DNA of 64,000 nt from a bacterium (GTDB lineage: Bacteria > Patescibacteriota > Minisyncoccia > Phycocordibacterales > UBA2100). How positions within the stretch are numbered: position 1 is the stretch's first letter; each line of letters begins with the position of its first letter. The stretch spans positions 15,575 through 79,574 of the forward strand of contig RFQR01000001.1 in the NCBI GenBank assembly GCA_009924895.1. The letters are read 5' to 3'. The notes beneath the pieces are model-generated. The model was not told the DNA's origin, ran no database searches, and worked only from the letters and a program-made list of their open reading frames with translations. Shown here piece after piece: positions 1 through 57,583 of the stretch. The translations under genes were made by a program, and so were the position numbers.

Positions 1-602
1 AGCGTCCGGTCGACCCCTTTTGTACTTAGATTGATCTGTCCATTCTCGATCAATATATCGTCGAGAAACAAGGTGATCTCACGGTTCACCGGCGACCAAT
101 AGTCTCCACTCTCTGGAACAACAAAGTAATTGCCGTACAGCCCTAATTCTTGTTGGAGGTCTTCGCGGACATGCGGATGATACCAGTACACGCCGGCGTC
201 GGGGAATTTCAGCTTATACGAGAATGCCTCGCCCGGCCCCATTTCTTCTTGTGTTGTCTGTGAACCGTCGAACGCATTGTCCATGCGCACACCATGCGAA
301 TGGAGTAGTGTTTTCATGCCCGTGTCGTTAGTGAAATTTATTGTCACCTCTGCGCCCTGCGCGATCTTGATTAGCGGTCCCGGAATTGAACCGTTATAGG
401 CAAGCATGGTATATGTCTTTCCACCAATTTCTTTTTTAACTGGAGAAGCTACGAGATCATAGGTATCGCCGTTTTTGAGTTCAACAATTTTGCTTTGCGC
501 GACAGGCGGTATCTCTGGCCCTGGCTTAACCGAGGCGATAGTTACAATAGCGGCAAGAACCACCACGATCGCGCCCCCGATGTATAGTCGTTTATTATTC
601 AT
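1..602 (-). CDS. multicopper oxidase, N-terminal part (gene continues beyond the window start)
   Basis: Manual minus-strand translation from ATG at 600-602 gives MNNKRLYIGGAIVVVLAAIVTIASV... (signal/TM), then a cupredoxin domain with an HSHG copper-ligand motif and ...GVYWYHPH.... It is absent from the ORF track because it is truncated by the window edge. Confidence 0.75.
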   Translation of the reverse strand, partial: MNNKRLYIGGAIVVVLAAIVTIASVKPGPEIPPVAQSKIVELKNGDTYDLVASPVKKEIGGKTYTMLAYNGSIPGPLIKIAQGAEVTINFTNDTGMKTLLHSHGVRMDNAFDGSQTTQEEMGPGEAFSYKLKFPDAGVYWYHPHVREDLQQELGLYGNYFVVPESGDYWSPVNREITLFLDDILIENGQINLSTKGVDRT

Positions 603-630
603 GGTGTTTTATCTTAACCGCAGTAGTCTA

Positions 631-849
631 TTAAATAATCTCGCCGCTTTTCTCAAGTATCATGTGGTGAATAGTCGCCACTTGAGTCCATATAGCTATG
701 AGGACTAGAATGGCGCTGCAAGCGAGTGCATCGACTTTTGTAATGCTGAAGGTGGAGTCCGCGCTCCCGAATACAGCAATGAGGAAAACGGAGACTCCTA
801 TAAAACCCGTGATTACACTCGCAACATGCATTAATTTTGATAGTTTCAT
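631..849 (-). CDS. small 2-TM membrane protein, function unknown
   Basis: 72-aa ORF in the same orientation and tightly packed within the copper operon. It has two hydrophobic helices. Confidence 0.35.
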   Translation of the reverse strand: MKLSKLMHVASVITGFIGVSVFLIAVFGSADSTFSITKVDALACSAILVLIAIWTQVATIHHMILEKSGEII

Positions 850-862
850 ATATTTTTTAGTT

Positions 863-1261
863 TTAGCTAACCTTAATTTGAAAGTTATACATTCCCATTC
901 CGCACACCCCCTGCACTTTGTCTCCAGATTTTGGAGTGCCTAAGTCAATTATTTCTTCACCTGTTGGTTGCAGTATTTTTTGGAAACCAACAGAGCGGAT
1001 TACAAGTGACGCCGTACAATCATATGTATCATCTGTCTTCACAACCAACTTGGTGGGTAATCCACCCTTGATTTGAGTAATGCGCGGGGAGTAGCCACCT
1101 TTTGCGGTAATAGTCACGTACTGTACGCCATCTCTAATTTCTACATTCTGCGATTGCGCAACTTCACCATTAGGGGATGCCGACCTATCAGAAATAAAAT
1201 ATAGAGTCCCTCCAATGAGGGCAACGCTGATGATAATGGATATGATTGTGTTTTTTTGCAT
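863..1261 (-). CDS. putative cupredoxin-like copper-binding protein
   Basis: N-terminal TM anchor followed by a beta-rich domain ending in a Cys/Met motif QGVCGMGMYNFQIKV. It lies inside the copper-resistance operon. Confidence 0.4.
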   Translation of the reverse strand: MQKNTIISIIISVALIGGTLYFISDRSASPNGEVAQSQNVEIRDGVQYVTITAKGGYSPRITQIKGGLPTKLVVKTDDTYDCTASLVIRSVGFQKILQPTGEEIIDLGTPKSGDKVQGVCGMGMYNFQIKVS

Positions 1262-1277
1262 AGATTAACTAATAAGA

Positions 1278-2285
1278 TTATATGTTAAATAAAGGGTCGA
1301 TAATGCCGAGTCCCGCTAGTCCCGCTAGAAGTGCAAAGGCTCCAAGACCAATCACTAAAACCCCAGCAGATTTAAAGAAAAGCGAAGCGTGCTTTGATTG
1401 AGCGAATGATGCAGAACCGAACGATAGTAATGCGAGCATTGGCAGTGTACCTAATGCAAAGGCTGTCATAATCAGAAATCCTGATAGAAATGAGCCACTT
1501 GAAAGTGCCGCAACCTGCATCGCTTGAGTAAATCCGCACGGCAGAAAAAATGTGCCGACACCAACCAAGAATGGGGCTATTGTCTTGTGCTCCACCTTGC
1601 GGAAGAAACTGAAAACTCCCGAAGGTAGAGCAATCATATTTTTCTCAAAAACTCCCACCAGGTTAAGCCCAAGTACAATCATCACGATTGACGCAATAAT
1701 TCCGAGTATTGCGGTAACGGTAAAACTTATACCAATTGCACTACCGATAGCACCGAGAACACCGCCAAGTATTGCAAAACTGATTAGTCTTCCACCGTGG
1801 AAAAGCATCATGGGTTTGACGTCGCTTATTTTGTCCTGAGACACTGTTGCAGAAAGAGAAAGGACAAGTCCTCCAACAACCGCAAGACAACTTGAGACAG
1901 ATGCTACCAAACCAATGATAAAACTTGTAACTGGCGTTACGGTTCCTCCTAAACCAAAGTTCAATACCCCTGACTTTTGAATAAAGAAGAAAAGAGCGAG
2001 AAAGGCAAGTCCGATAGGAAGTGCTTGAAAGAATACTCCATTATCCTTTTTCTCTTTCGTTTTTCGCTCTACAGAAAGAGTGTACCCATTGTGCTTAATT
2101 TTCTCAGTTAATATTTCCGCAAGTTTATGTTGACTCTCATCAAGAGTAGTATCGATAGTTACTGTTTCTTGCTTCAGATCAACACTTATACGATCGATAC
2201 CAATCTGCTCACTTAGAGTATCCTCGATGAAGATTTTACATGAAGGACAATGGGTACCTGAAACGTGGAATGTGTAGGTTTTCAT
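1278..2285 (-). CDS. heavy-metal-associated (HMA) domain fused to a CcdA/DsbD-like multi-TM permease
   Basis: The N-terminus carries GTHCPSCK, a variant of the GMxCxxC HMA motif. The C-terminus is polytopic with FLPCGF and SSC motifs typical of DsbD_2/CcdA-type thiol-disulfide transporters. It overlaps the upstream gene by 4 bp. Confidence 0.55.
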   Translation of the reverse strand: MKTYTFHVSGTHCPSCKIFIEDTLSEQIGIDRISVDLKQETVTIDTTLDESQHKLAEILTEKIKHNGYTLSVERKTKEKKDNGVFFQALPIGLAFLALFFFIQKSGVLNFGLGGTVTPVTSFIIGLVASVSSCLAVVGGLVLSLSATVSQDKISDVKPMMLFHGGRLISFAILGGVLGAIGSAIGISFTVTAILGIIASIVMIVLGLNLVGVFEKNMIALPSGVFSFFRKVEHKTIAPFLVGVGTFFLPCGFTQAMQVAALSSGSFLSGFLIMTAFALGTLPMLALLSFGSASFAQSKHASLFFKSAGVLVIGLGAFALLAGLAGLGIIDPLFNI

Positions 2286-2689
2286 AAGTCTTTTGTTATT
2301 GTTCTAAGACGACCCCATTCTTTCCAGAAAAAATAAGCAATAACCGGAAATGCGAGAGATGTTATGAGCCCTGGATAATATCCGCCAGCAAGAACTGCTT
2401 TGACGATGTGGTGAAGCTCAAAGATATACACAACTCCTATAACCCCCAACAAATAAAATCGCCACCGTTCGCCTAATAGAAGCACTAGCGAGACAAGGAG
2501 CAGCAACCAGAACATGAGTTGGAAGGTTACAAACATGACACCGTGCAGTGAGAGCTGTGCGAACGGCTGAAAAAGATATGCATCCCATGCGTCCATTTCA
2601 TAAAACCCCGTGAATATCTCTTCAATCCCGTGCGCAATAAAAAACGGAATTGAGAGCGCAAATATGTATTTTATTTTTTTCGATATCAT
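2282..2689 (-). CDS. HXXEE-domain membrane protein
   Basis: HGIEE motif at the N-terminus. It has 4 TM segments and the length typical of the HXXEE family. Confidence 0.55.
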   Translation of the reverse strand: MISKKIKYIFALSIPFFIAHGIEEIFTGFYEMDAWDAYLFQPFAQLSLHGVMFVTFQLMFWLLLLVSLVLLLGERWRFYLLGVIGVVYIFELHHIVKAVLAGGYYPGLITSLAFPVIAYFFWKEWGRLRTITKDL

Positions 2690-2691
2690 AG

Positions 2692-5004
2692 TTATATTTT
2701 CATTGCCTTAAGACGAAGCGCATTCCCGACCACTGAAACGCTTGAAAGTGCCATTGCGAGTCCGGCGAATACAGGAGATAAGAGCCAACCGAATATCGGA
2801 TAGAAGAGTCCTGCAGCGAGCGGAATCCCCACAATGTTGTAGACGAATGCAAAGAATAGATTTTGCTTTATTCCTCGCATAGTCATCTTTGAGAGTTTGA
2901 TAGCCTTAACAAGCTTCGAGATATCTCCATGGAGGAGTGTGATACCCGCCGACTCAATCGCAACATCAGTGCCTGTCGCCATTGCGATACCCACATCTGC
3001 CTGTGCAAGTGCTGGTGCATCATTTACACCATCACCTGCCATTGCGACTATCTTGCCTTGCGATTGCAGTTCTTTAATTTTCTTTAGTTTGTCTTCGGGC
3101 AGTACCTGAGCGACTACCTCGTCGATGCCGACCTGCTGTGCGATATAAGCGGCAGTATTTTTGTCATCCCCCGTCAGCATGACGGTTCTGATGCCGAGCT
3201 TGTGCAGATTCCGTACGGCTTCAATCGCTTCAGGCTTAATCGCGTCTGAAACGAGAACTGCCGCGAGTATCCTTTCTTTAGTTGCAAGAATGACGGGCGT
3301 CCTCCCGTTTTTCGTTTCTGTTTCAAGCGAGGCGGCATCAAAAGACAGCTGCAAGTCTCTTGCTAGAGCAAGATTTCCTGCAAAATACTCAACACCATCT
3401 ATTACTCCTCTAAGTCCTTTGCCTTTGATGATCTCGAAGCGTTGCGCGCTTTGTATCGTCAGTTTCTTCTCTTTCGCATACGCCACAATAGCGTGAGCAA
3501 TGGGGTGCTCTGATTTGTTTTCGAGCGTCGCGAGAATTGAAGCTATTTCGTCCTCTTTCATATCTGTATAGTTTTGGATTGAGATCAATTCCGGCTTTCC
3601 TTTGGTGATCGTCCCGGTCTTATCAACTACGACAACATTCACTTTGTGGAGCTTTTCGAGCGTCGCGGCATCTTTAATGAGAATGCCTTCTTTTGCGCCC
3701 TTACCTACACCCACAATGATTGCGACTGGGGTGGCGAGCCCAAGAGCACATGGGCACGCAATCACGAGTATCCCAACGAATGAGACAAGCCCGAATGACA
3801 AGGCCTGTGCAAAGCCGAAGTATCCAGTCCCAAGAACAAGCCATGCGCCAAGCGTGACCACCGCAAGAACGAGAACCGTCGGAACAAAAACACTTGAAAT
3901 CTTGTCTGCAAGCGCTTGGATGGGAGCTCTACTCCCTTGGGCTTCTTCCACCATCTTAACGATTTGAGAGAGCATAGTCTCAGAGCCAACTTTTGTCGCC
4001 CTGAACGTGAATGCGCCAGTTGTGTTGATGGTTCCCGCAACGACAGTGTCTCCAGTATTTTTCTCAATAGGAATCGGCTCACCACTTATCATGGCTTCAT
4101 CTACAAAGGACGACCCTTCCGTAAGCACCCCATCGACAGGAATTTTCCCGGCTGGCTTTACTAGAATCAGATCGCCATGCACCACTTGATTCACTGGAAT
4201 TTCTTGCTCTTTTCCGTCACGAATAACTAAAGCTGTTTTTGCTTGAAGGTTGAGAAGCTTTTCAATAGCATCTCCCGTTTTTATCTTTGATCGTGCCTCT
4301 AAATATTTACCGAACGTAATGAAAGCAATAACCACTATCGTCACATCGTAGTAGGTGTACTCAACATTGATAAATTGGCGTAGTGGCTCCTCAAGTGCGG
4401 TGACCGCGATGCTGTAAACATACGCGGCGGTCGTACCGATGCCAATGAGTGTATCCATATTTGCTTTCCCGTAGCGGAAGAAACGATACATGCCCATGAG
4501 ATAGGGCTTACCAACGACAAAGAGCACGTAGGTCGCCATGAGTGGCAGGAGATGATGGAAAAATTCAGACCAAACGTACGGCACGGCCGGGAGTACCTCA
4601 AATTGGGCGAGCATATCCCAACCCATCACGAAAATACTGAAAATAGTGAGTGGAATCACGGAGAGTACCTTTGTCTTCATTTCCTCAACTTCTTTCAGTT
4701 TTACTTCCTTTGATTGCTTCAATCCGAGATGAGCGGCATGTTCATCAGGTGACATGCCCATTTCTGCTGCGGACATTGTGGAATGATCTACAGTGGGAAG
4801 GATGAGAGAGTAACCGAGCGTCTCAATTTTCTTTGAGAGCTCATGGGGATTCGTTTTTTGCTCATCAAAAGATACTTTTGCGGTTTCAGTACCATAGTTC
4901 ACTTCAGCTGAATGAACGCCATCCGTTTTCTTAAAGGTCTTTTCGATCATTGAGGAACATGAAGCGCAGTGCATTCCTTTTACTCTGTACGTTTGTGTGT
5001 GCAT
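2692..5004 (-). CDS. copA: copper-translocating P1B-type ATPase
   Basis: N-terminal HMA motif GMHCASC. Membrane CPC motif IACPCALGLATP. Phosphorylation site VVVDKTGTIT. Hinge motif GDGVNDAPAL. Length 770 aa. Confidence 0.95.
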   Translation of the reverse strand: MHTQTYRVKGMHCASCSSMIEKTFKKTDGVHSAEVNYGTETAKVSFDEQKTNPHELSKKIETLGYSLILPTVDHSTMSAAEMGMSPDEHAAHLGLKQSKEVKLKEVEEMKTKVLSVIPLTIFSIFVMGWDMLAQFEVLPAVPYVWSEFFHHLLPLMATYVLFVVGKPYLMGMYRFFRYGKANMDTLIGIGTTAAYVYSIAVTALEEPLRQFINVEYTYYDVTIVVIAFITFGKYLEARSKIKTGDAIEKLLNLQAKTALVIRDGKEQEIPVNQVVHGDLILVKPAGKIPVDGVLTEGSSFVDEAMISGEPIPIEKNTGDTVVAGTINTTGAFTFRATKVGSETMLSQIVKMVEEAQGSRAPIQALADKISSVFVPTVLVLAVVTLGAWLVLGTGYFGFAQALSFGLVSFVGILVIACPCALGLATPVAIIVGVGKGAKEGILIKDAATLEKLHKVNVVVVDKTGTITKGKPELISIQNYTDMKEDEIASILATLENKSEHPIAHAIVAYAKEKKLTIQSAQRFEIIKGKGLRGVIDGVEYFAGNLALARDLQLSFDAASLETETKNGRTPVILATKERILAAVLVSDAIKPEAIEAVRNLHKLGIRTVMLTGDDKNTAAYIAQQVGIDEVVAQVLPEDKLKKIKELQSQGKIVAMAGDGVNDAPALAQADVGIAMATGTDVAIESAGITLLHGDISKLVKAIKLSKMTMRGIKQNLFFAFVYNIVGIPLAAGLFYPIFGWLLSPVFAGLAMALSSVSVVGNALRLKAMKI

Positions 5005-5005
5005 A

Positions 5006-5281
5006 CTATTTTCTTTTCAGCTTATACACCTTAAGAATTTCTTCCTTTGCCTTACTGGTCTGCCCGGATTTTATTTGATTCAAAATGCAGCCGCCGAGAT
5101 GGTTTTCGAGCAGAAGATCCTCAACGTTTGAAAGACCCTGCTTGACAGCTGAGGTTTGCGTAATTACATCGATGCAATAAGTATCGTTTTCGACCATCTT
5201 TTGAAGCCCGCGCACCTGACCCTCAAGAAGCTTGAGTCGTCGAATGATTCGACCCTTACTTTTATCTTCCATGTATTTCAT
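5006..5281 (-). CDS. csoR: CsoR-family copper-sensing transcriptional repressor
   Basis: 91 aa with a Cys...His-x3-Cys ligand pattern (DTYCID ... ENHLGGC), which matches CsoR rather than RcnR. It sits immediately upstream of copA and is co-oriented with it. Confidence 0.85.
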   Translation of the reverse strand: MKYMEDKSKGRIIRRLKLLEGQVRGLQKMVENDTYCIDVITQTSAVKQGLSNVEDLLLENHLGGCILNQIKSGQTSKAKEEILKVYKLKRK

Positions 5282-5292
5282 ATATAGATACT

Positions 5293-5310
5293 ATACCCCC
5301 TAGGGGGTAT
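5293..5310. promoter_or_regulatory. candidate CsoR operator: perfect 18-bp palindrome ATACCCCCTAGGGGGTAT overlapping a putative -10 (TATAGT)
   Basis: Read directly from the sequence. It lies 12 bp upstream of the csoR start on the minus strand. Known CsoR operators are GC-tract pseudo-palindromes of this kind. Confidence 0.6.
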
Positions 5311-5380
5311 ACGTGTAAAGTACTCGCTTCCGAGTTACCAACACTCGGGCATTTGGGGCGCTCTGGACTCCTAGGGAGGG

Positions 5381-6733
5381 TTGCGTCATTCCTTGTGTTG
5401 TATGGAAAAAACAACAACATCAAGGACTAACCTCGGCGTGAGGCAGGTTGAGCCAGCTCCTGTAATTAAATACTGCCTCTACGCAAGAAAGTCGACTGAA
5501 AGCGAGGAACGACAAATCCTCTCTATCGATAGTCAGATTAAAGAGATGATTCAACTCGCAGAACGCGAGGGTCTTGAGATAGTCGAAATCAAGCGAGAGT
5601 CACACTCCGCAAAAGAGACAGGACAAAGACCTGTCTTCAACGAAATTATCGAAGAGATACGGCAAGGAAAATTCACAGGAATACTGACGTGGGCACCAGA
5701 TCGCATCAGCAGAAATGCTGGAGACCTCGGAAAGATAGTGGACCTGATGGATGCAAAGCTTCTCGTCGAGATTCGCACATTCGGACAAAGATTCACCAAT
5801 AGCCCAAGTGAGAAATTCCTGTTGATGATTCTCGGAAGTCAGGCGAAGCTTGAGAACGATAACCGAGGTATCAACGTGAAGCGTGGACTGCGAACTAGAG
5901 TGGAGATGGGGCTATGGCCTGGAGTGGCACCGCTTGGATATCTGAATCAAAAACTGATGGACAAGAAGTGTCAGATTGCCGTTGATACAGCACGTGCTCC
6001 AATAGTTAAGAAAATGTTCGAAAAAGTTGCATACGAACATTACTCGGGCAGAAAGATTTACAACTGGCTGAAGTTTGAACTGAACTTTCATACGCGCGGA
6101 AACAAACCACTGACGCTAAGTGGTGTGTATCGCATGCTCGACAATCCGTTCTACTACGGACCATTCGAGTATCCGAGAGAAAGTGGCAACTGGTATCAGG
6201 GCAAACACACGCCGCTTATCACTCAAGAATTATTTGAGAAAGCACAAGCACAACTGAAGCGTGACCAGATAGTGAGGGAGAACAAGGAGTTCGCCTTCAC
6301 CAAATTATTCACCTGCGGATACTGCCAGAGCGGTATATCAGCCGAAGAAAAGTGGAAACCACTCAAAGATGGAACATCAGCACACTACATTTACTACGGA
6401 TGCAGTCGAGCGAGAGACAGAAACTGCAAGAACAAATACATACGTGAGGAAGAACTGATAGACGAGCTACTGAAAATAATTGACGTGGTAAACATAAACG
6501 AGCTGGGCATGAGGCAAAAGCTGGAAGATGAGATACGACGATTCAATAAACTACAAAAGATAGTAAATGGGAGAAGTGGACACGGATTGGTGGAAGAAGA
6601 TGATGTGAACATCAGACAATACGCAAAATACCTTCTCAAAGAAGGAAGTACATCAGACAAGAGAGAACTGCTCGCGAACCTACGAAGCAGACTGAACTAC
6701 AAGGACAAAAAGATAACGATGATGGAGGAGTAG
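5381..6733 (+). CDS. large serine recombinase (resolvase/invertase N-domain, recombinase domain and zinc ribbon)
   Basis: N-terminal YARKSTESEERQ...SIDSQ catalytic-serine motif. C-terminal Cys-rich CGYCQSG...YYGCSRARDRNCKNK zinc ribbon. Length 450 aa. Confidence 0.9.
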   Translation: MRHSLCCMEKTTTSRTNLGVRQVEPAPVIKYCLYARKSTESEERQILSIDSQIKEMIQLAEREGLEIVEIKRESHSAKETGQRPVFNEIIEEIRQGKFTGILTWAPDRISRNAGDLGKIVDLMDAKLLVEIRTFGQRFTNSPSEKFLLMILGSQAKLENDNRGINVKRGLRTRVEMGLWPGVAPLGYLNQKLMDKKCQIAVDTARAPIVKKMFEKVAYEHYSGRKIYNWLKFELNFHTRGNKPLTLSGVYRMLDNPFYYGPFEYPRESGNWYQGKHTPLITQELFEKAQAQLKRDQIVRENKEFAFTKLFTCGYCQSGISAEEKWKPLKDGTSAHYIYYGCSRARDRNCKNKYIREEELIDELLKIIDVVNINELGMRQKLEDEIRRFNKLQKIVNGRSGHGLVEEDDVNIRQYAKYLLKEGSTSDKRELLANLRSRLNYKDKKITMMEE

Positions 6734-6740
6734 AGCAAAC

Positions 6741-6777
6741 AAAAAAGAACGACCGAAATCGTTCTTTTTTGTTACAA
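6741..6777 (+). terminator. rho-independent terminator after the recombinase
   Basis: AAGAACGACCGAAATCGTTCTTTTTTG: an 8-bp stem followed by a T6 run. Confidence 0.6.
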
Positions 6778-6842
6778 CTTTTTGGGCACTCGGGTCACAG
6801 CTTGCTCGCTATCACTCGGGTCATGCCGATAAAAAGTTGTCC

Positions 6843-6930
6843 TGGCGGAGAGGGAGGGATTCGAACCCTCGATGCCTTGCGACATGGCGCTTTTCGAGAG
6901 CGCTCGTTTCAACCACTCACGCACCTCTCC
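6843..6930 (-). tRNA. tRNA-Ser (anticodon CGA), CCA encoded
   Basis: Manual fold of the minus-strand sequence GGAGAGGTGCGTGAGTGGTTGAAACGAGCGCTCTCGAAAAGCGC...GAGGGTTCGAATCCCTCCCTCTCCGCCA. It has a 3-bp D-stem, the anticodon loop CUCGAAA, a long variable arm and G73. Confidence 0.85.
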
Positions 6931-6976
6931 GTAGGCAGAAGAGTACTTTATTTTGTCTTCTTTTCAAAACAGGCAC

Positions 6977-7567
6977 TCAGCGCCTCTTTCTGAGATTGAG
7001 CGAAGCGAGTGTCAGTGCAGAGATTGCCTGCGAATCAGTAATAGCACCCTTCAGAATCATGTCACTTGTTTTTGAAAGTGGTAGAATCTTCATTTCTGTA
7101 ATCCCATCGGCTTCCTGTTTGTTTTTTCCAGTCTGGGTGAGTCCTGTTGCAAGGAATATGTGGGTAACTTCACTCAAAAGTCCGTTTGCAGATTGAATTG
7201 TTCCGAGCTTTTTCCACTTTTTTGCGCTTAGCCCTGTCTCTTCCCAGAGCTCGCGTTTAGCAGCTTGCAAGGGATTTTCTCCAGTATCAACGCTCCCGCC
7301 AGGCACTTCGAGCGACATTCTGTCAGTAGCATATCGGTGCACTCGCACCAACGTAACGCGCCGTTGTTTGTCGAGCGCAATAATGACCACACACGGAGGT
7401 GTATCAACAACAAAATACTCGCCCTCGGTTTGCTCTGGGGTGGTCACTCTGTCGTGTCGCACGGTGTACCACGGATTTTTATGTACCACTTTCGCCGAAA
7501 GTTGCTTCCACTGCCTTTCATACAATGAATATACCCGAGTATATGCTGCTCGAGAAGCAAGGAACAC
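6977..7567 (-). CDS. NUDIX hydrolase
   Basis: Nudix box GGSVDTGENPLQAAKRELWEETGL. Confidence 0.85.
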   Translation of the reverse strand: MFLASRAAYTRVYSLYERQWKQLSAKVVHKNPWYTVRHDRVTTPEQTEGEYFVVDTPPCVVIIALDKQRRVTLVRVHRYATDRMSLEVPGGSVDTGENPLQAAKRELWEETGLSAKKWKKLGTIQSANGLLSEVTHIFLATGLTQTGKNKQEADGITEMKILPLSKTSDMILKGAITDSQAISALTLASLNLRKRR

Positions 7568-7632: not shown

Positions 7633-7719
7633 GGAGAGATGGGTGAGTGGTTTAAACCAGCGGTTTACTAAACCGTCGCTCATTAACTTGAGCCGCGAGT
7701 TCGAATCTCGCTCTCTCCG
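7633..7719 (+). tRNA. type II tRNA, Ser-like (G73, long variable arm). The anticodon loop UUACUAA gives ACU in the U33 register and CUA in the alternative register.
   Basis: Manual fold: acceptor GGAGAGA/TCTCTCC, D-arm GGT..ACC, anticodon stem GCGGT/ACCGT, variable arm GCTCA-TTAACT-TGAGC, T-arm GCGAG TTCGAAT CTCGC. No CCA is encoded. Confidence 0.7.
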
Positions 7720-7873
7720 CAGTTTGAACGCAGTGAAAACTGCGGAGAGAAAAAACGTGCCTGCGCACGTTTTGTGCGGATTCGAAAAGCGGAGTCATGT
7801 TTTTGTAGAAACAAAAACGGACGAGCTAGGGTCGTGAAATTTTTCTTGTGACGACAAGAAAAATATTCCTGAC

Positions 7874-8014: not shown

Positions 8015-9124
8015 CTACTGATACTGAATAAACGACGGTGCTGGAGTAAGCTCGAGCACTTCTTTTGGAGTCATGAGGCGTGTTGATGGTGGCTTCATGT
8101 CATTCTTGTAGAAAATTTTAAACCCGGTGAACTGCACAGGCTCGTCCATAATAACGCGCTCGTAGGTACCGACTTTTCGTGCGCCATAGCCCCACCCATC
8201 CATATCCATTACTATCTGCACTTCAGGCAATGGTTTGATGTTGCGGTATCCGGTGACCATCTCCTCGGTAAAGCGGTGAACGATAAGAATTTTTGGCGGC
8301 AGATTATGTTTCTGAACTAATCCTTGCAAATACTGTGCAGCGTAGTTGATGTCGGCGGAACTAAATGTGCCAATTTCATCTCCCGGTGCTCCTTTGTGTT
8401 TCATTGAGAATTCAGGGTCGAGAGCAAGGTGGACCTGTGGCATCGACAAGTATTTTTCGAGCGAAGGTAAGTCTCGTTGGAGAGTGCTAAATCCTATCTG
8501 CATTTCTAATATGACAATCCCGTTTACCTGCCGCGCCATCTCAAGCGCTTTGTCGATTTGGTTGTCAGGCATTTGAATACGATATTTTCCATCTTTGCCA
8601 GGCCTGTCTTGGGCAGCGACGGCAATATAGTCAATCGCGTGAATAACAGGCGTGGACGGGTCGGCCTCTGACCACTCTGCCGCAGCTTTTTGTAACTTAG
8701 CAAGCGTACTTGATGCATCTGCTTCGCCTAAAATGCCCATACCTTTCGAATAAAAGTTGCCGTAATACGCGACAATACGGTTAAAAGGGAGTAGCGCTCC
8801 CGCATTTGGATAGGTAGAGCGTGTTGGCCATTGTCGTATGGTGCTGCTCGCAAGAGAGCTCTCAGTAAAAGAAGAAAGGGTACGATCACCAGGGGTGGGT
8901 GCGAGAACTAGTTTTGAAATAGTCGTTGTCGATACGTGCGCAAGCGCGAGCATTTTGCGGTCATAGGCAAGCTTATCGAGCTGGGGAACTTGTTTGGGGG
9001 CGCTTTCAGGCGTTTTGTGAGCACAGTACAAAACTTGACGAGACAGAGTCAGGTAAACGAGCGCAGTAAGCAGGATAGTACCTGCTGTAAAAAAAGTGAG
9101 TAGAGAGATGTGCCGTAGTGACAT
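8015..9124 (-). CDS. membrane-anchored secreted protein, function unknown
   Basis: 369-aa ORF with an N-terminal TM anchor. I recognise no signature. Confidence 0.45.
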   Translation of the reverse strand: MSLRHISLLTFFTAGTILLTALVYLTLSRQVLYCAHKTPESAPKQVPQLDKLAYDRKMLALAHVSTTTISKLVLAPTPGDRTLSSFTESSLASSTIRQWPTRSTYPNAGALLPFNRIVAYYGNFYSKGMGILGEADASSTLAKLQKAAAEWSEADPSTPVIHAIDYIAVAAQDRPGKDGKYRIQMPDNQIDKALEMARQVNGIVILEMQIGFSTLQRDLPSLEKYLSMPQVHLALDPEFSMKHKGAPGDEIGTFSSADINYAAQYLQGLVQKHNLPPKILIVHRFTEEMVTGYRNIKPLPEVQIVMDMDGWGYGARKVGTYERVIMDEPVQFTGFKIFYKNDMKPPSTRLMTPKEVLELTPAPSFIQYQ

Positions 9125-37240: not shown

Positions 37241-37856
37241 AACACGCGGTTCTCAGAATTCCGTAACGGGAGTCTGAGAAAGGGCGTGCGGTGGATGCCT
37301 AGACTGAAAAAGGCGATGAAAGACGCGGCATGGCGGCGATACGCTTCGGGGAGGTGCTCAGCAACCTTTGATCCGGAGATTTCTGAATGGGGAAACCCCA
37401 TCAAGTAACCCTTGATGACTCTCTTATTAACGTAAGAGTAGAGCAGACCTTGGGAAGTGAAACATCTCAGTACCAAGTGGAAAAGAAAACAAATGTTATT
37501 CCCTTAGTAGCGGCGAGCGAAACGGGAGGAGCCCAAACTCAGCCACATAGAGAGGGACTAGTAATGTTAGCCACTAGCGACTAGTGAAATGCAGCAATGC
37601 ATCCACTAATCTCTATACCCTAACACCTAGTCACTGTCTATGAGGATGGGGGTTATAAGGCTACAGCGCTAGTAATAGGTAGAGTCACAAATTGCTTAGT
37701 TAGTGGAATTGTCTGGAAAGACAAGCCCCAGCGGGTAATAGCCCCGTACACGAAAACAAAGCAACTCTATGGCTGTAGTTCTTGAGTAACTCGAGACACG
37801 AATAGCTCGGGTGAATTCGCCAGAACTAACTGGTAAGGCTACATACTTTTTCAGAT

Positions 37857-37899
<43 letters not shown>

Positions 37900-39425
37900 G
37901 GTAAGGGGAGTGAAATAGAACTGAAACCGCATGTCTACAAGGAGTCGAAGAGGGTGCAAATCCTCGACGGCGTGCCTATTGAAGAATGAGCCAACGAGTT
38001 AATGCATACGGTTTGGTTAAGGGGTAATCCCCCCGAGCCGCAGCGAAAGCGAGTGTGAATAGCGCGTTTATCGTATGTATTAGACCCGAAGCTAGGTGAG
38101 CTACCCATGGACAGGCTGAACCTTCTAGAAATAGGAGGGGAGGGCCGAACTCGTAGATAGTGCAAAATCTTGGGATGATCTGTGGGTTGGAGTGAAAAGC
38201 TTATCGAACCTAGTAATAGCTGGTTCTCTCCGAAAGAGCTTTCGGGCTTGCGTCGTATGTTTCTGCAGGGGGTAGAGCACTGGAAGAAGCGGATAGGTCG
38301 AAAGACCACTGCCTCTATCAAACTCCGAATACCTGCAGCCACAGTACGGCAGTTAGTCGGTGGGGGCGAAGCTCCACTCGACAAAAGGGAAACAGCCCAG
38401 ACCGCCATTTAAGGTCCCAAAATCTACGCTCAGTGCAAAACAAGGAGGTGGAATTTCATAGACAGTCAGGATGTTGGCTTAGAAGCAGCCACCATTCAAA
38501 GAAAGCGTAACAGCTCACTGACTTAGAGATTCTGCGCCACAAATGATCGGGGCTTAAGCGTAGTACCGAAGATGCGGATTTGTACTTTACTGTACAAGTG
38601 GTAGGAGAGCGTTTTGATTGCGATGAAGGTAAAGGGGTGACCCATGCTGGAGCGATCGGAAGTGAAAATGTTGGCACGAGTAACCGCAATGCATGTGAGA
38701 TTCATGCACGCCGAAAGATCAAGGTTTCCTTCGCACTGGAGATCAGCGAAGGGTTAGTCGGTCCTAAGCCATTGGCGACAGCCGCAGGCGATGGATATAC
38801 GGTTAATATTCCGTGACTTGATTATGGTGCGATGGAGTGACGGAGTGAAATAGTTCAAGCGTGCAATTGGATGTGCGCTGCTTTGTAACAGACGCTGCCT
38901 AGGCAAATCCGGGCAGCATACATCTGGTACAAGGCAAGACGGGGAGGCTTCGGCCGAACTTAATTTGAGCGAAGACGCTTCCAAGAAAAACTTCTAAGCA
39001 TAACCATAACCAATCCGTACCAAAACCGACACAGGTGATCAGGTCGAGTAGACCAAGGCGAACGAGTGAGAGGTCCTCAAGGAACTCGGCAAAAAAGCGG
39101 CCGTAACTTCGGGATAAGGCCTGCCTTTCGCAAGAAAGGCCGCAGTTAATGATTCCCAGGCAACTGTTTACCAAAAACACAGCTCCCTGCAAACTCGCAA
39201 GAGGAAGTATAGGGGGTGATGCCTGACCAATGCCGGAAGGTCAAATACGGGCGTTGCCCAGCTCTAATTTTTTGAACCAGTTTTGCTGGTCAAGCACTGA
39301 ATAGCTCACTTAATCACATTAAGTTGAGAGTAGGTGTTTCGAGAAATTAGGGCTGGGTGGTGACTTGTATAAGCCCCGGTCAATGTCGGCGATAACTATA
39401 ATCGTCCTAAGGTAGCGAAATTCCT

Positions 39426-40533
39426 AGAAGACTGGGACTTGTACCTGTAAGGGTGCAAGCAAATTCTGCTATATGCGGGAAAGTCCGGTAGTATCTGGAG
39501 CTACTTATGTACAGTCAAACGATGCCAATTTAGCATTGTCTGGTAAAATAAGTACATGAGTAAAAATGCTTCCAGTGGTTCCGACCAAACTAAAATTGAA
39601 TCGGAAGCCGGATAATCCGCAGGAAACGTTGAATGAAAACTTTTACTATTCAGGATTCTTTGCAGCCGAGATGACGTGTTCCGTCATCAAAGCGGCAAAT
39701 TACAATCCGGTAGGACATTACTACTTTGCCGTTGATATCACTGTGACTAATGCTGATAAGGCATTGCTGCAGGAAGTCAACCAAGTTGTGATGAAAGGAG
39801 GAGGGATAATCAGTTCGGTGAAAGGAGCGTATAACCTAAGTGTGCGAGGTAAAAATCGCGTGCATGTTGTACTCGACTTCTTGCAACGGTACCCGATTAT
39901 CATTGGTGATCTCGCAAAAAATCGCGTTGCGCTTTTGAGAGAAGCATTCAGCTATCTCGAAGAACATCGCGGTGCAGGCGAGCACCAGAAAAAGATTGAA
40001 GTTATGGATGGAATACGAAAGAAACTACGATTGATCAAAGAAATCGGCATAGTTGATACTTCGTACCCATTAGAGAAACTTGACAGAGATGTGATTGGAC
40101 ATTTCTTGGCTGGAATTCTCGACGGTGAGGGTTCGTTCGGATTCAAAACGAGCGGTACTCACCAAGAACCATTCTTTGCAGTAGCTATGAAAGATCGAAA
40201 GATTATCAAGTTATGCAGAGATTTTCTTCAGTACGGCAACGTACGAAAGAGAAAAGATGGTGTGCACCATTACGAAATCAATCGAAAACAAATCCTTCAG
40301 AAAGTTTGCAAAATATTTCTCACACAGTATCCGCTCAAACATGCGCGGCAACAAGAGAGATTGCGAATAGTTCAACGGCTCCTCAACGACTACACGCAGA
40401 ATCACCACAAACGTGGTGAGTGATATAGTCTGATCTGTATGGCGACATACAGAGTGTGGCTCGCGCCACACCGCTTTGCTAACATTTTAGCGAAGTCAAA
40501 CTTTTGCACCAGCAAAAGTTAAAGTAACAGAAT
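39426..40533 (+). mobile_element. intron in 23S rRNA (E. coli position about 1917-1931, GCGAAATTCCT^TGTCGGGTAAG), presumably group I
   Basis: Exon 1 ends at ...GGTAGCGAAATTCCT (39421-39425) and exon 2 resumes at TGTCTGGTAAGTTCAGACGCGCACGAATGG (about 40534). The insert carries a LAGLIDADG ORF. Confidence 0.7.
39566..40423 (+). CDS. LAGLIDADG homing endonuclease (intron-encoded)
   Basis: Motif HFLAGILDGEGSFGF. 285 aa. It lies inside the 23S insertion. Confidence 0.85.
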   Translation: MLPVVPTKLKLNRKPDNPQETLNENFYYSGFFAAEMTCSVIKAANYNPVGHYYFAVDITVTNADKALLQEVNQVVMKGGGIISSVKGAYNLSVRGKNRVHVVLDFLQRYPIIIGDLAKNRVALLREAFSYLEEHRGAGEHQKKIEVMDGIRKKLRLIKEIGIVDTSYPLEKLDRDVIGHFLAGILDGEGSFGFKTSGTHQEPFFAVAMKDRKIIKLCRDFLQYGNVRKRKDGVHHYEINRKQILQKVCKIFLTQYPLKHARQQERLRIVQRLLNDYTQNHHKRGE

Positions 40534-41326
40534 GTGTCTGGTAAGTTCAGACGCGCACGAATGGTATAATGACTTGGGAACTGTCTCGAGGACTTGCTCG
40601 GTGAAAATACAAGGGCGGTGAAGATGCCGCCTTCCTGCAGCTAGACGAAAAGACCCCAGAAGCTTTACTGTAGTTTGGTATTGGGATTACGGGTGCACCG
40701 CGTAGCGTAAGTGGGAGACTTTGAAGCAGAGGTTTCGGCCTCTGTGGAGTCGTCAATGCAACACCACTCCTTGTTTCTGTAATTTCTAACTTCTCAAGAG
40801 AAACTTGAGAAAGACAGTACTTGATGGGCAGTTTCGGTGGGGCGCTGTCCTCCTAAAAAGTAACGGAGGAGCATATTAAGGTCATCTAGCCGCGAATGGA
40901 AACCGTGGCGATAGTGCATTGGCATAAGATGGCTTAACTGCGAGTCGTACGTGACAAGCAGGCGCGAAAGCGGATCAAAGTGAACCGACAGTTCGCATTA
41001 GATGCGACTGAAGATTAACGGATAAAAGTTACTCTGGGGATAACAGGCTGGTTTCGCCTAAGAGTCCAAATCGACGGCGAAGTTCGGCACCTCGATGTCG
41101 GCTCATCTCAGCGCGGGGCTGGAGAAGGTCCCAAGCGTATGGCTGTTCGCCATTTAAAGAGGTACGTGAGCTGGGTTCAAACCGTCGTGAGACAGGTTGG
41201 TCTTAATCTGCTGTAGGCGTTGATTCTTGAGGAGATTTGTTTCTAGTACGAGAGGACCGAAATGAACTGACCTCTGGTCTGGGGGCTGTTACGCCAGTAG
41301 CACCGCCCCGTAGCTATGTCGGGATT

Positions 41327-41359
<33 letters not shown>

Positions 41360-41718
41360 GACTCCAAGATTAGGAATCGTTATAGATTCGTGAGAGATGA
41401 TCACGTTGATAGGCACTAGGTGTACGCACAGTAATGTGTTCAGCCGAGGTGTACTAATGAATCGACAGAACTCCCGTTCTGGATTGTGAGAATACGTGTT
41501 CTATTTTTTCCTGAATTTGTGCTTTCGATTAGTCCGACAAAAATGTGTACCATTTTCGTCGGATATGTCGCCCAACAAAACTTTTTTAAAGTTTGGTCGG
41601 GCATGCTCTTCAGTTGCCAGCGAACAGTGCTGCGACCGATTTTTCATACTCGTAGAGTATAGAAAAATGGAAGTGCCCTCGTGGTGCAATTGTTCTTTGT
41701 AAAGCATTTGGAATGTGG

Positions 41719-55513: not shown

Positions 55514-56012
55514 AGAGGGAACGAGAGGGCCTCGGCGCACAGCGCCGGGGCCCTCATTCTGTGCCACATATTCGTTTGACAAATATTAGGAAACCGTCTA
55601 TCATGCCCCCACTCGCCGGTGGCGGTTTTTTTCTGGAAAGTAAGAAGCGAAAGCGACTATACTTTCCTGAACCCCGTTCTACTTTTGCTGGGCACAGCGA
55701 AGACGAGCTAAAACTTGTTTGTCGCGTTCGTTTGGATTGAAAACGTACTGTGGCATGCAAAAGTAGAACTGGGGTACTGCACGACGAGGTTCTTTGAAAA
55801 CTGAATACACACAATAAACACACACAACGTCCGCACGCATTTATGTGTGGCGGACATGCAAGTAACACAAGAAAAGTAAGTAATAGCAATTCTGGAACAA
55901 ATAGAGAGAACGTTTCCTAGGAGGAAATGTTCAACATTCTTTTGTTCCGTTCACACGAGCCCGAACTCGCAAGAGTTTAGGGCAAAACAGAATAGAACTC
56001 GTTTCTATTCTT

Positions 56013-57466
<1,454 letters not shown>

Positions 57467-57583
57467 AATCGGATAGGCCGCCCTAAACCCTTCGGGGTCG
57501 GGTCAGGTCCACCGGTCGATTTGAGTGTCTCGATCGAGCACTCAAGAGAGAGACGTCCTTCTTTAACAGACGTCGGACAGATT

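Follow-up and report, generated by a model that had tools for sequence, protein, structure and literature searches.

A CsoR-type copper-resistance operon in a candidate phyla radiation bacterium and its predicted HMA, DsbD_2 and cupredoxin module

Bacterial copper export is thought to be well mapped, its parts being P1B ATPases, resistance-nodulation-division (RND) pumps, oxidases and soluble chaperones. Among the described systems are the CsoR-controlled copZA/cso operons of Bacillus subtilis, Mycobacterium tuberculosis and Streptomyces lividans, in which an autoregulated csoR gene is followed by the gene of a P1B-1 ATPase and a G/C-tract TAC...GTA palindrome overlaps the promoter. Here, we describe an operon of this familiar kind of copper resistance, located at positions 1-5281 of a 64-kb stretch of DNA (the window; 64,000 nucleotides of contig RFQR01000001.1, assembly GCA_009924895.1) from a bacterium of the candidate phyla radiation (CPR). 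The operon shares with its described relatives the repressor family, the Cu(I) ligands, the palindrome and the order of the first two genes. It differs from them in that it has no free CopZ and that five more genes, an oxidase gene included, follow the pump within one unit. Its accessory genes represent an uncharacterised variant.

These accessory genes have described relatives of their own. In Streptococcus pneumoniae, the CopY-CupA-CopA system (4F2E, 4F2F) includes the Cu(I) chaperone CupA, which has been described as limited to a few streptococci (review, PMC7558416). COG2836, which combines an HMA with a DsbD_2 domain and sometimes with DUF2318, has been predicted as a member of the CsoR regulon in gut Firmicutes (PMC4938975). 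The window encodes a homologue of CupA next to a permease that resembles COG2836 in its HMA + DsbD_2 architecture and in its predicted control by CsoR, although the CPR forms come without DUF2318. An initial annotation of the window, made from the sequence alone, had called this type of permease rarely discussed. It is indeed under-studied, but the regulon prediction means that it is not unseen and that the copper link of HMA + DsbD_2 is not new. The Firmicutes study was confined to regulon prediction and contained no cupredoxin partner, invariant cysteines or topology. As far as the searchable literature shows, the triad of HMA, DsbD_2 and cupredoxin domains, its topology and its invariant cysteines are new.

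The copper operon and its control

The operon consists of seven co-directional genes on the minus strand, all of which are present as the initial annotation had described them. The first is csoR (5006-5281), encoding a Cu(I)-sensing repressor of 91 aa, followed by copA (2692-5004) for a P1B-1 Cu(I)-exporting ATPase of 770 aa. Next come the genes for an HXXEE-family membrane protein with four transmembrane segments (135 aa; 2282-2689), an HMA-DsbD_2 permease with seven (335 aa; 1278-2285), a CupA-like membrane-anchored cupredoxin (132 aa; 863-1261) and a small membrane protein with two transmembrane segments (72 aa; 631-849). The last gene encodes a multicopper oxidase and extends past the window start, so that the window holds its 5′ part (1-602; 200 codons). 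A Pfam scan of the window proteins, reported at E ≤ 0.01, confirmed every domain proposed earlier (HMA, DsbD_2, HXXEE, Cupredoxin_1 and Cu-oxidase). The genes are tightly packed, with gaps of at most 28 nt, and no terminator-like site was found across the intergenic junctions. The overlaps of 2-4 nt that had been claimed for the gene boundaries apply to a single pair, HXXEE/HMA-DsbD_2, which overlaps by 4 nt (ATGA); the other five junctions are gaps of 1, 2, 16, 13 and 28 nt. A search for internal promoters or terminators that would split the operon returned weak intragenic consensus matches only, for promoters no more than shuffled sequences predict. Moreover, the sub-modules of the operon recur in dozens of other genomes, and thus the arrangement is not a chance juxtaposition.

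The operon promoter (5290-5319, minus strand) is predicted from its match to the consensus. It is formed by a -35 hexamer TTTACA (5319-5314), an 18-nt spacer and a -10 hexamer TATAGT (5295-5290). The region of the csoR start codon follows 9 nt downstream. With 10/12 consensus positions, it is the best sigma-70-like match within positions 1-7000 and the only good promoter there. A perfect 20-bp palindrome, TATACCCCCTAGGGGGTATA (5292-5311), stretches across the spacer and the -10 hexamer as a 10+10 nt inverted repeat with 100% complementarity, and represents the predicted CsoR operator. The pattern TACCC-N(2-8)-GGGTA occurs once in the 64-kb window, at this very site. Of 22 related loci, 20 have the same box upstream of csoR, at a distance of 25-40 bp, and just two other matches were found in ~640 kb of sequence. 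One of these two, a second CsoR-type box TACCCCAGAGGGGTA at L012:6074-6089, directly precedes a multicopper oxidase gene, which suggests that in some genomes the oxidase has a CsoR-controlled promoter of its own. The window box essentially corresponds to the CsoR consensus published for Streptomyces, ATATACCCCTNAGGGGTATAT (PMC3902906).

The repressor itself matched PF02583 (Trns_repr_metal) at 2e-23 with 83 bits, compared to a cutoff of 22.8, and its nearest NCBIfam match was RicR (1e-19). The x-C-H-C Cu(I) ligands C36, H61 and C65 as well as the second-shell residues Y35 and E81 are legible in its 91-aa translation. These residues were matched to the numbering of M. tuberculosis CsoR. By its residues, the protein carries the signature of a Cu(I) sensor, which sets it apart from family members that sense persulfide, nickel or formaldehyde. 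Taken together, the Cu(I) signature and the conserved operator within the promoter make it well supported that, as initially proposed, CsoR controls a single copper-induced transcript. A CsoR tetramer on the palindrome would block the operon promoter. Once cytoplasmic Cu(I) occupied C36/H61/C65, the repressor would dissociate from the DNA and allow the expression of all seven genes. We consider it close to certain that the genes form a CsoR-derepressed operon for Cu(I) efflux and oxidation that is transcribed as one unit.

The pump at the head of the operon matched TIGR01511 with 594 bits (cutoff 397) and TIGR01525 with 632 bits, and its Pfam domains are E1-E2_ATPase (3e-57), Hydrolase (5e-35) and HMA (2e-17). 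CopA contains a single N-terminal HMA domain (GMHCASC), the DKTGT motif, CPC in transmembrane segment 4 (TM4), YN in TM5 and MxxSS in TM6, and the same motifs are found in its orthologues. By these motifs it is a P1B-1 Cu(I) exporter, which would pump Cu(I) out at the cost of ATP. At the other end of the operon, the oxidase matched Cu-oxidase_3 (2e-25) as well as the NCBIfam models for Copper_res_A and CueO. The window part encodes the first oxidase domain only, together with an N-terminal signal or anchor; no twin-arginine motif was found in the N-terminus. An identical oxidase gene on a metagenomic contig of 3.6 kb (L001), also incomplete, encodes at least 392 aa with the first and the middle multicopper oxidase domains and a Met-rich stretch, MMGGMMSNAGGHMMPGGQMM, typical of cuprous oxidases. 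From the first domain in the window and the middle domain on this contig, we predict a three-domain multicopper oxidase. Exported by the Sec route, this Met-rich enzyme would turn Cu(I) into the less toxic Cu(II) outside the membrane. The combination of efflux with external Cu(I) oxidation, which the initial annotation had described as a classic resistance logic, is thus borne out by the domain assignments of CopA and the oxidase. Its term "periplasmic" is loose, as it presupposes an envelope type, and "extracytoplasmic" is safer.

The 72-aa protein encoded between the cupredoxin and the oxidase has no Pfam or NCBIfam match. It has two transmembrane segments and the conserved pattern MHV...DALAC...W.Q..TIHHM.LE..GE, and 13 homologues were found in copper loci, mostly alongside a multicopper oxidase and sometimes in several copies. 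The protein may act as an accessory of the oxidase. Three paralogues of it lie within a single copper locus at L041:7779-11148.

The HMA, DsbD_2 and cupredoxin triad

The permease matched DsbD_2 (PF13386) at 6e-31 and HMA at 5e-11, and the HMA motif GTHCPSCK reported earlier is found at residues 10-17. Public annotation labels the protein as a sulfite exporter TauE/SafE, which we reject: no match to PF01925 was obtained at E ≤ 0.01, Pfam gives DsbD_2 and the genomic context is copper. An exhaustive search yielded 4647 homologues, and 135 full-length representatives with 33-71% identity were used to describe the anatomy. Two cysteines, C133 (S-x-C, TM2) and C250 (P-C-G-F-T, TM5), are each conserved in 100% of these representatives, while the CxxC motif of the HMA domain (C13xxC16) is kept in 96%. 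The mean number of lysine and arginine residues per successive loop alternates (2.76/0.41/2.43/0.02/4.71/0.11/2.13/0.59), which points to seven transmembrane segments, a cytoplasmic HMA domain and an outer C-terminus. An AlphaFold2 model (predicted local distance difference test, pLDDT, of 87) consists of an HMA fold and seven helices, of which TM2 breaks at 130-131 and TM5 at 248-250, exactly at C133/C250. The actinobacterial form begins at the six-helix core, without the additional helix in front of it, which fits a core that has both ends outside and an additional helix that serves only to place a fused HMA domain inside.

Compared to CcdA/DsbD, the permease has a related transmembrane domain with two repeats of three transmembrane segments and one essential-looking mid-membrane cysteine per repeat (C133 and C250). 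It differs in that it matches PF13386 only and not PF02683 (DsbD_TM), for which two homologues gave sub-threshold matches. Further differences are the extra first helix (TM0), the cytoplasmic HMA domain and the outer partner, which is a copper-binding cupredoxin and not a thioredoxin fold.

This outer partner had been overlooked in the initial annotation both as a homologue of CupA and as the obligatory companion of the permease. The 132-aa protein matched Cupredoxin_1 at 6e-7 (29.8 bits; cutoff 27). Against the PDB, it matched the Cu(I) chaperone CupA of S. pneumoniae (2mry/4f2e) at 3e-8 and the cupredoxin metal-binding domain of pneumococcal CopA (4f2f) at 2e-4. The bridging Cys and the C-x-M-x-M ligands align with those of CupA, being DCTAS and CGMGM in the window protein, and the free protein shares with CupA a hydrophobic N-terminal membrane anchor. 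By alignment, the protein is a CupA homologue in which the Cys/Cys/Met/Met Cu(I) ligands are kept. We found 1694 homologues, the best 120 of which were all CPR proteins of ~132 aa. Fusion partners did not appear in this search, which gave near-identical CPR proteins only among the matches listed; the fusions described below came via the permease. The surroundings differ from those in S. pneumoniae, since the window regulator is CsoR and not CopY and the constant partner of the CupA-like domain is the DsbD_2 permease and not the pump. Likewise, CupA-type systems combine a position at the cytoplasmic face with a cupredoxin domain on CopA, while the CopA described here carries a ferredoxin-like HMA domain and the CupA-like domain is predicted to lie outside.

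Loci from other genomes show how tightly the permease and the cupredoxin are linked. A CupA-like gene starts within 150 bp after the permease gene in 16 of 17 cases. The loci behind the adjacency counts, here and for HXXEE below, were collected via HXXEE, and copper loci are over-represented among them, which weakens the counts as evidence. The C...CxMxM ligands are kept in 16/16 of these CupA-like proteins. Two CPR genomes have a bare csoR-copA-permease-cupredoxin arrangement in unrelated neighbourhoods. Moreover, 48 of the 135 permease representatives reach a length of 420 aa or more, with CxMxM in the tails of 43. According to Pfam, the long forms are HMA-DsbD_2-Cupredoxin_1 fusions. No hydrophobic segment separates the last permease helix from the cupredoxin in them, so that an outer C-terminus of the permease would place the fused cupredoxin outside too. 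The anchor of the free CupA-like protein is consistent with the same location.

A third arrangement is found on plasmids of Tsukamurella and Streptomyces, where a DsbD_2-Cupredoxin_1 fusion (CGMGM kept) is followed by a free HMA protein of 72-85 aa. It adjoins genes for a P1B ATPase, MerA, a multicopper oxidase and MerR-type regulators. On the Tsukamurella plasmid the module stands directly before merA, and in the Streptomyces plasmid island (L049) it coexists with canonical CcdA genes. MerH of M. marinum might be a further DsbD_2 protein; a tblastn search of plasmids returned six records, none of them from this species. The occurrence of these three domains in three different fusion patterns across distant phyla is strong evidence that HMA, DsbD_2 and cupredoxin act as one functional unit. 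Its predicted topology, with the HMA domain in and the cupredoxin out, rests on the positive-inside rule, the helix count of the AlphaFold2 model and the logic of the fusions.

Metal relay or electron conduit

How might this unit work? We consider it possible, at somewhat less than an even chance, that the triad acts as an outward thiolate relay for Cu(I). In such a relay, the cytoplasmic HMA domain would bind Cu(I) by its CxxC motif and pass it by ligand exchange to C133/C250, which sit at the TM2/TM5 breaks of the CcdA-like 3+3 core and would be exposed alternately to each side of the membrane. From the two cysteines, Cu(I) would move on to the Cys/Cys/Met/Met site of the outer-face cupredoxin, to be removed there by the oxidase or by dilution into the medium. 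The process would be independent of ATP, with its direction set by the terminal sink.

A different reading, which we judge unlikely overall but the most serious competitor, takes the DsbD_2 core as a CcdA-type electron transporter. Reducing power from thioredoxin, possibly via the HMA CxxC motif or gated by it, would flow through C133/C250 and keep the outer CupA-like cysteines reduced, and thus able to take copper expelled by CopA and to pass it to the oxidase. The membership of the transmembrane domain in the DsbD/CcdA-like group, seen in its PF13386 match and in the sub-threshold PF02683 matches of two homologues, speaks for it, as does the invariant cysteine at a helix break in each three-helix repeat, as in CcdA. 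The sole constant outer partner also has a bis-thiolate high-affinity site that is oxidisable outside the cell. Also in its favour, CcdA/DsbD supplies TlpA, which in turn keeps Sco, an extracytoplasmic copper chaperone, in the reduced state, and DsbD/ScsB pathways aid copper tolerance.

We nevertheless favour the relay, because the partner that recurs on the cytoplasmic side is not a thioredoxin fold but a metallochaperone domain, which CPR bacteria have as a fusion and Actinobacteria as a separate protein. That distant phyla keep an HMA domain in or next to the module points to metal, and not electrons, as the cargo. No thioredoxin-like gene was found beside the module in the CPR loci. The canonical CcdA genes that share an island with the module in Streptomyces suggest that the module has a different job, and the merA linkage in Tsukamurella fits a passage of metal better than one of electrons.

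Several points weigh against a relay. No energy source is evident for outward transport, and the outward direction is a proposal. Extracytoplasmic Cys-based Cu(I) sites tend to oxidise, which is the best argument for the supply of reductant. S. pneumoniae CupA has been described as acting at the cytoplasmic side together with CopA, the opposite of the topology predicted here. The proximity of C133 and C250 is an assumption. Sequence and profile searches of the PDB and Foldseek gave matches for the HMA domain only, and none among solved structures for the transmembrane domain.

The triad also recalls the mercury system MerP-MerT-NmerA, in which metal is likewise handed along an HMA CxxC motif, two membrane cysteines and a metal-binding domain at the opposite face, and distant members of the triad adjoin merA. 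It differs in its unrelated membrane protein, in an HMA domain that is inside and not outside, and in a net direction proposed to be outward. An inward, Mer-like triad would capture Cu(I), Ag(I) or Hg(II) by the outer cupredoxin and hand it via the membrane cysteines and the HMA domain to CopA, or to MerA in mercury islands, and so keep metal off surface targets. The shared architecture with mer uptake (outer metal-binding domain, membrane cysteine pair, inner HMA) and the Tsukamurella module directly before merA would suit this reading, which we regard as improbable. Import of copper would be harmful when CsoR reports an excess, and the CPR module is predicted to be co-transcribed with an exporter and an oxidase while a reductase is absent. 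The NCBIfam MerT and MerP models matched only via the HMA domain, far below their cutoffs.

Hardly credible, finally, is that four of the genes, those for HXXEE, permease, cupredoxin and the 72-aa protein, merely hitch-hike and have no copper role, for example as a TauE/SafE-type permease under a CstR-like persulfide regulator: the public permease label, known pairs of CsoR-family persulfide sensors with TauE genes and HXXEE homologues in unrelated contexts could be cited for it, but the permease matches DsbD_2 and not TauE, the regulator combines the C-H-C ligands for Cu(I) with an operator of the copper type, and linkage to copper ATPases, HMA domains, CupA-type ligands and multicopper oxidases recurs across phyla and fusion arrangements. 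The Pfam, ligand and operator evidence leads us to reject a CstR-like persulfide operon.

The HXXEE protein, module exchange and flanking DNA

The second accessory that the initial annotation had proposed as a candidate copper handler is the HXXEE protein, which matched PF13787 at 6e-8 with 33.9 bits (cutoff 25). A homology search gave 117 clusters, and all source names given were CPR lineages or the generic "bacterium". Eight residues (H20, E23, E24, H94, Y104, Y105, G107 and T110) are invariant in 91 HXXEE sequences. AlphaFold2 yielded a confident four-helix transmembrane bundle (pLDDT 95) with no fold match in the PDB. Lysine and arginine counts predict that the protein starts and ends in the cytoplasm and that its conserved His, Glu and Tyr residues cluster at the outer face.

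Synteny was analysed in 41 loci from species-representative genomes with a reach of 8 kb. A P1B ATPase gene is found in 26/41 and any copper gene in 28/41. Homologues with at least 55% identity are accompanied by copper genes in 16/17 loci, and in 11 loci the ATPase gene ends within 150 bp upstream of HXXEE. The CPR genomes thus tie both HXXEE and HMA-DsbD_2 to copper genes, in agreement with the initial annotation. The pumps beside HXXEE are of three kinds, which are characterised by CPC, by CPH or by an unusual CPD motif together with N-terminal YTCPMHPE...CPxCGM. CPD-type P1B ATPases are encoded in L008, L012, L014, L016, L019, L031 and L046 (e.g., L012:1678-3918), beside genes for HXXEE, the 72-aa protein and the oxidase. 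They have VIACPDALGLATP in TM4 and carry YTCPMHPE...PGxCPxCGM as an N-terminal metal-binding motif. We know of no classical P1B subtype with a CPD/YTCPMHPE signature.

Described membrane proteins offer two precedents for the role of HXXEE. MucF of S. mutans, the only characterised HXXEE protein, is a membrane deacylase encoded in an antibiotic gene cluster (bioRxiv 10.1101/755025; PMC9112991). It shares the Pfam family with the window protein and differs in this gene cluster and in its five predicted transmembrane segments, compared to four. Lit2, a membrane acyl-transfer enzyme, is co-transcribed with copper genes (PMC8275575) and sets a precedent for an acyl-transfer enzyme in a copper operon, although Lit was absent from the sequence and fold search matches. 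By analogy, HXXEE may be a copper-induced membrane hydrolase of the MucF type with a His/Glu site at the outer face, a tentative reading to which we give less than even credence. Induced together with the pump, it would modify an envelope lipid or lipoprotein under copper stress. A more doubtful, still tenable reading is that HXXEE assists the P1B ATPase, as a copper acceptor or as a scaffold. PacL sets the precedent for it, as it shows that small membrane proteins can be obligatory P1B ATPase partners (PMC13460109); PacL, too, was absent from the sequence and fold search matches. We lean towards the hydrolase, and HXXEE may thus be a copper-induced enzyme rather than a copper handler.

The copper role of HXXEE has evidence against it. 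The Pfam match is modest, 11 of the 38 CPR loci with a scorable HXXEE match contain no copper gene, and distant homologues occur in non-copper settings. While the synteny supports the earlier proposal of a copper-handling function, these loci and the deacylase MucF place part of the family outside metal-related contexts. In one locus (L021:6454-9439), an HXXEE homologue of 51% identity lies between atpA and atpG of an ATP synthase operon and overlaps atpA by 4 nt. In two loci without copA (L032:8377-8637 and L043:1048-1311), HXXEE is followed by a conserved protein of ~86 aa (AFANTFAIIDL...SYEW), which in L043 precedes a 318-aa protein with a Met/His-rich C-terminus, MSDMNMPGIDHSKMQMSQ. These genes may represent another copper-linked partner set. 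Taken as a whole, the copper operon with its triad relay and its HXXEE protein as described here is the best explanation of the locus, and we put its chances at about even.

Related loci fall into two types, one with csoR-copA-(HXXEE)-permease-cupredoxin and one with csoR, another P1B ATPase and genes for HXXEE, the 72-aa protein and the oxidase. The window operon joins both types. Permease and cupredoxin keep 85-93% identity over more than 100 protein clusters, whereas the neighbouring copA and HXXEE diverge far more and the flanking genes vary between genomes. The conserved permease and cupredoxin among divergent neighbours suggest that the module is exchanged between CPR lineages.

Divergently from csoR, a large serine recombinase of the CcrB-like type (Resolvase, Recombinase and Zn_ribbon domains) is encoded at 5381-6733 on the plus strand, followed by a tRNA-Ser(CGA) gene at 6843-6930 on the minus strand. 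The recombinase has 34 relatives with 44-83% identity in IMG/VR viral contigs, several of which continue with tRNA-Ser-like DNA. Similarity to those contigs ends at ~5333, beside the CsoR operator. The copper operon may be the cargo of an integrated element whose other end lies beyond the window start. No clear break in GC content or skew was seen around the operon in the composition profile. The permease has no relatives in IMG/VR viral contigs, though the recombinase has many, and phage cargo is therefore not supported for the copper genes; a non-phage island carrying the operon is possible.

Further features lie elsewhere in the window. The 23S rRNA gene (37267-41478) is 4212 nt long, compared to 2925 nt for the model, and encloses a 285-aa open reading frame (39566-40423, plus strand) with the LAGLIDADG-type motif LAGILDGEGSF. 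Its excess length and this reading frame make it probable that the gene is interrupted by an intron encoding a homing endonuclease. The 23S-tRNA-Cys-5S block is followed only ~14.5 kb further downstream by the 16S gene (56010-57467), and thus the rRNA genes are unlinked and in an unusual order. A tRNA-Ser gene at 7633-7720 (plus strand) has the anticodon loop TTACTAA, with anticodon ACU and A34. AGY serine codons are normally read by GCU, and ACU with A34 is unusual. An open reading frame of 369 aa (8015-9124, minus strand) with an N-terminal transmembrane segment had no Pfam match at E ≤ 0.01.

For the organism, the operon means that a minimal-genome CPR bacterium spends seven genes on copper defence, which appear to be shuffled as modules between lineages. 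The HMA, DsbD_2 and cupredoxin module has thousands of members that are mislabelled as "sulfite exporter", and none of them represents a characterised case. If the triad moves Cu(I), it would introduce a new transport principle into metal homeostasis, and CupA would no longer look like a streptococcal oddity. If electrons are its cargo, it would provide a dedicated redox maintenance line for an external copper chaperone. We suggest, as a doubtful possibility, that the triad represents a previously unrecognised class of ATP-independent transporters of thiophilic metals, namely Cu(I) and perhaps Ag(I) and Hg(II), which extends from CPR bacteria to Actinobacteria and would move the ion as a bis-thiolate on the two membrane cysteines from one chaperone domain to the other, and that HXXEE represents a second new class, of outer-face factors linked to P1B ATPases.

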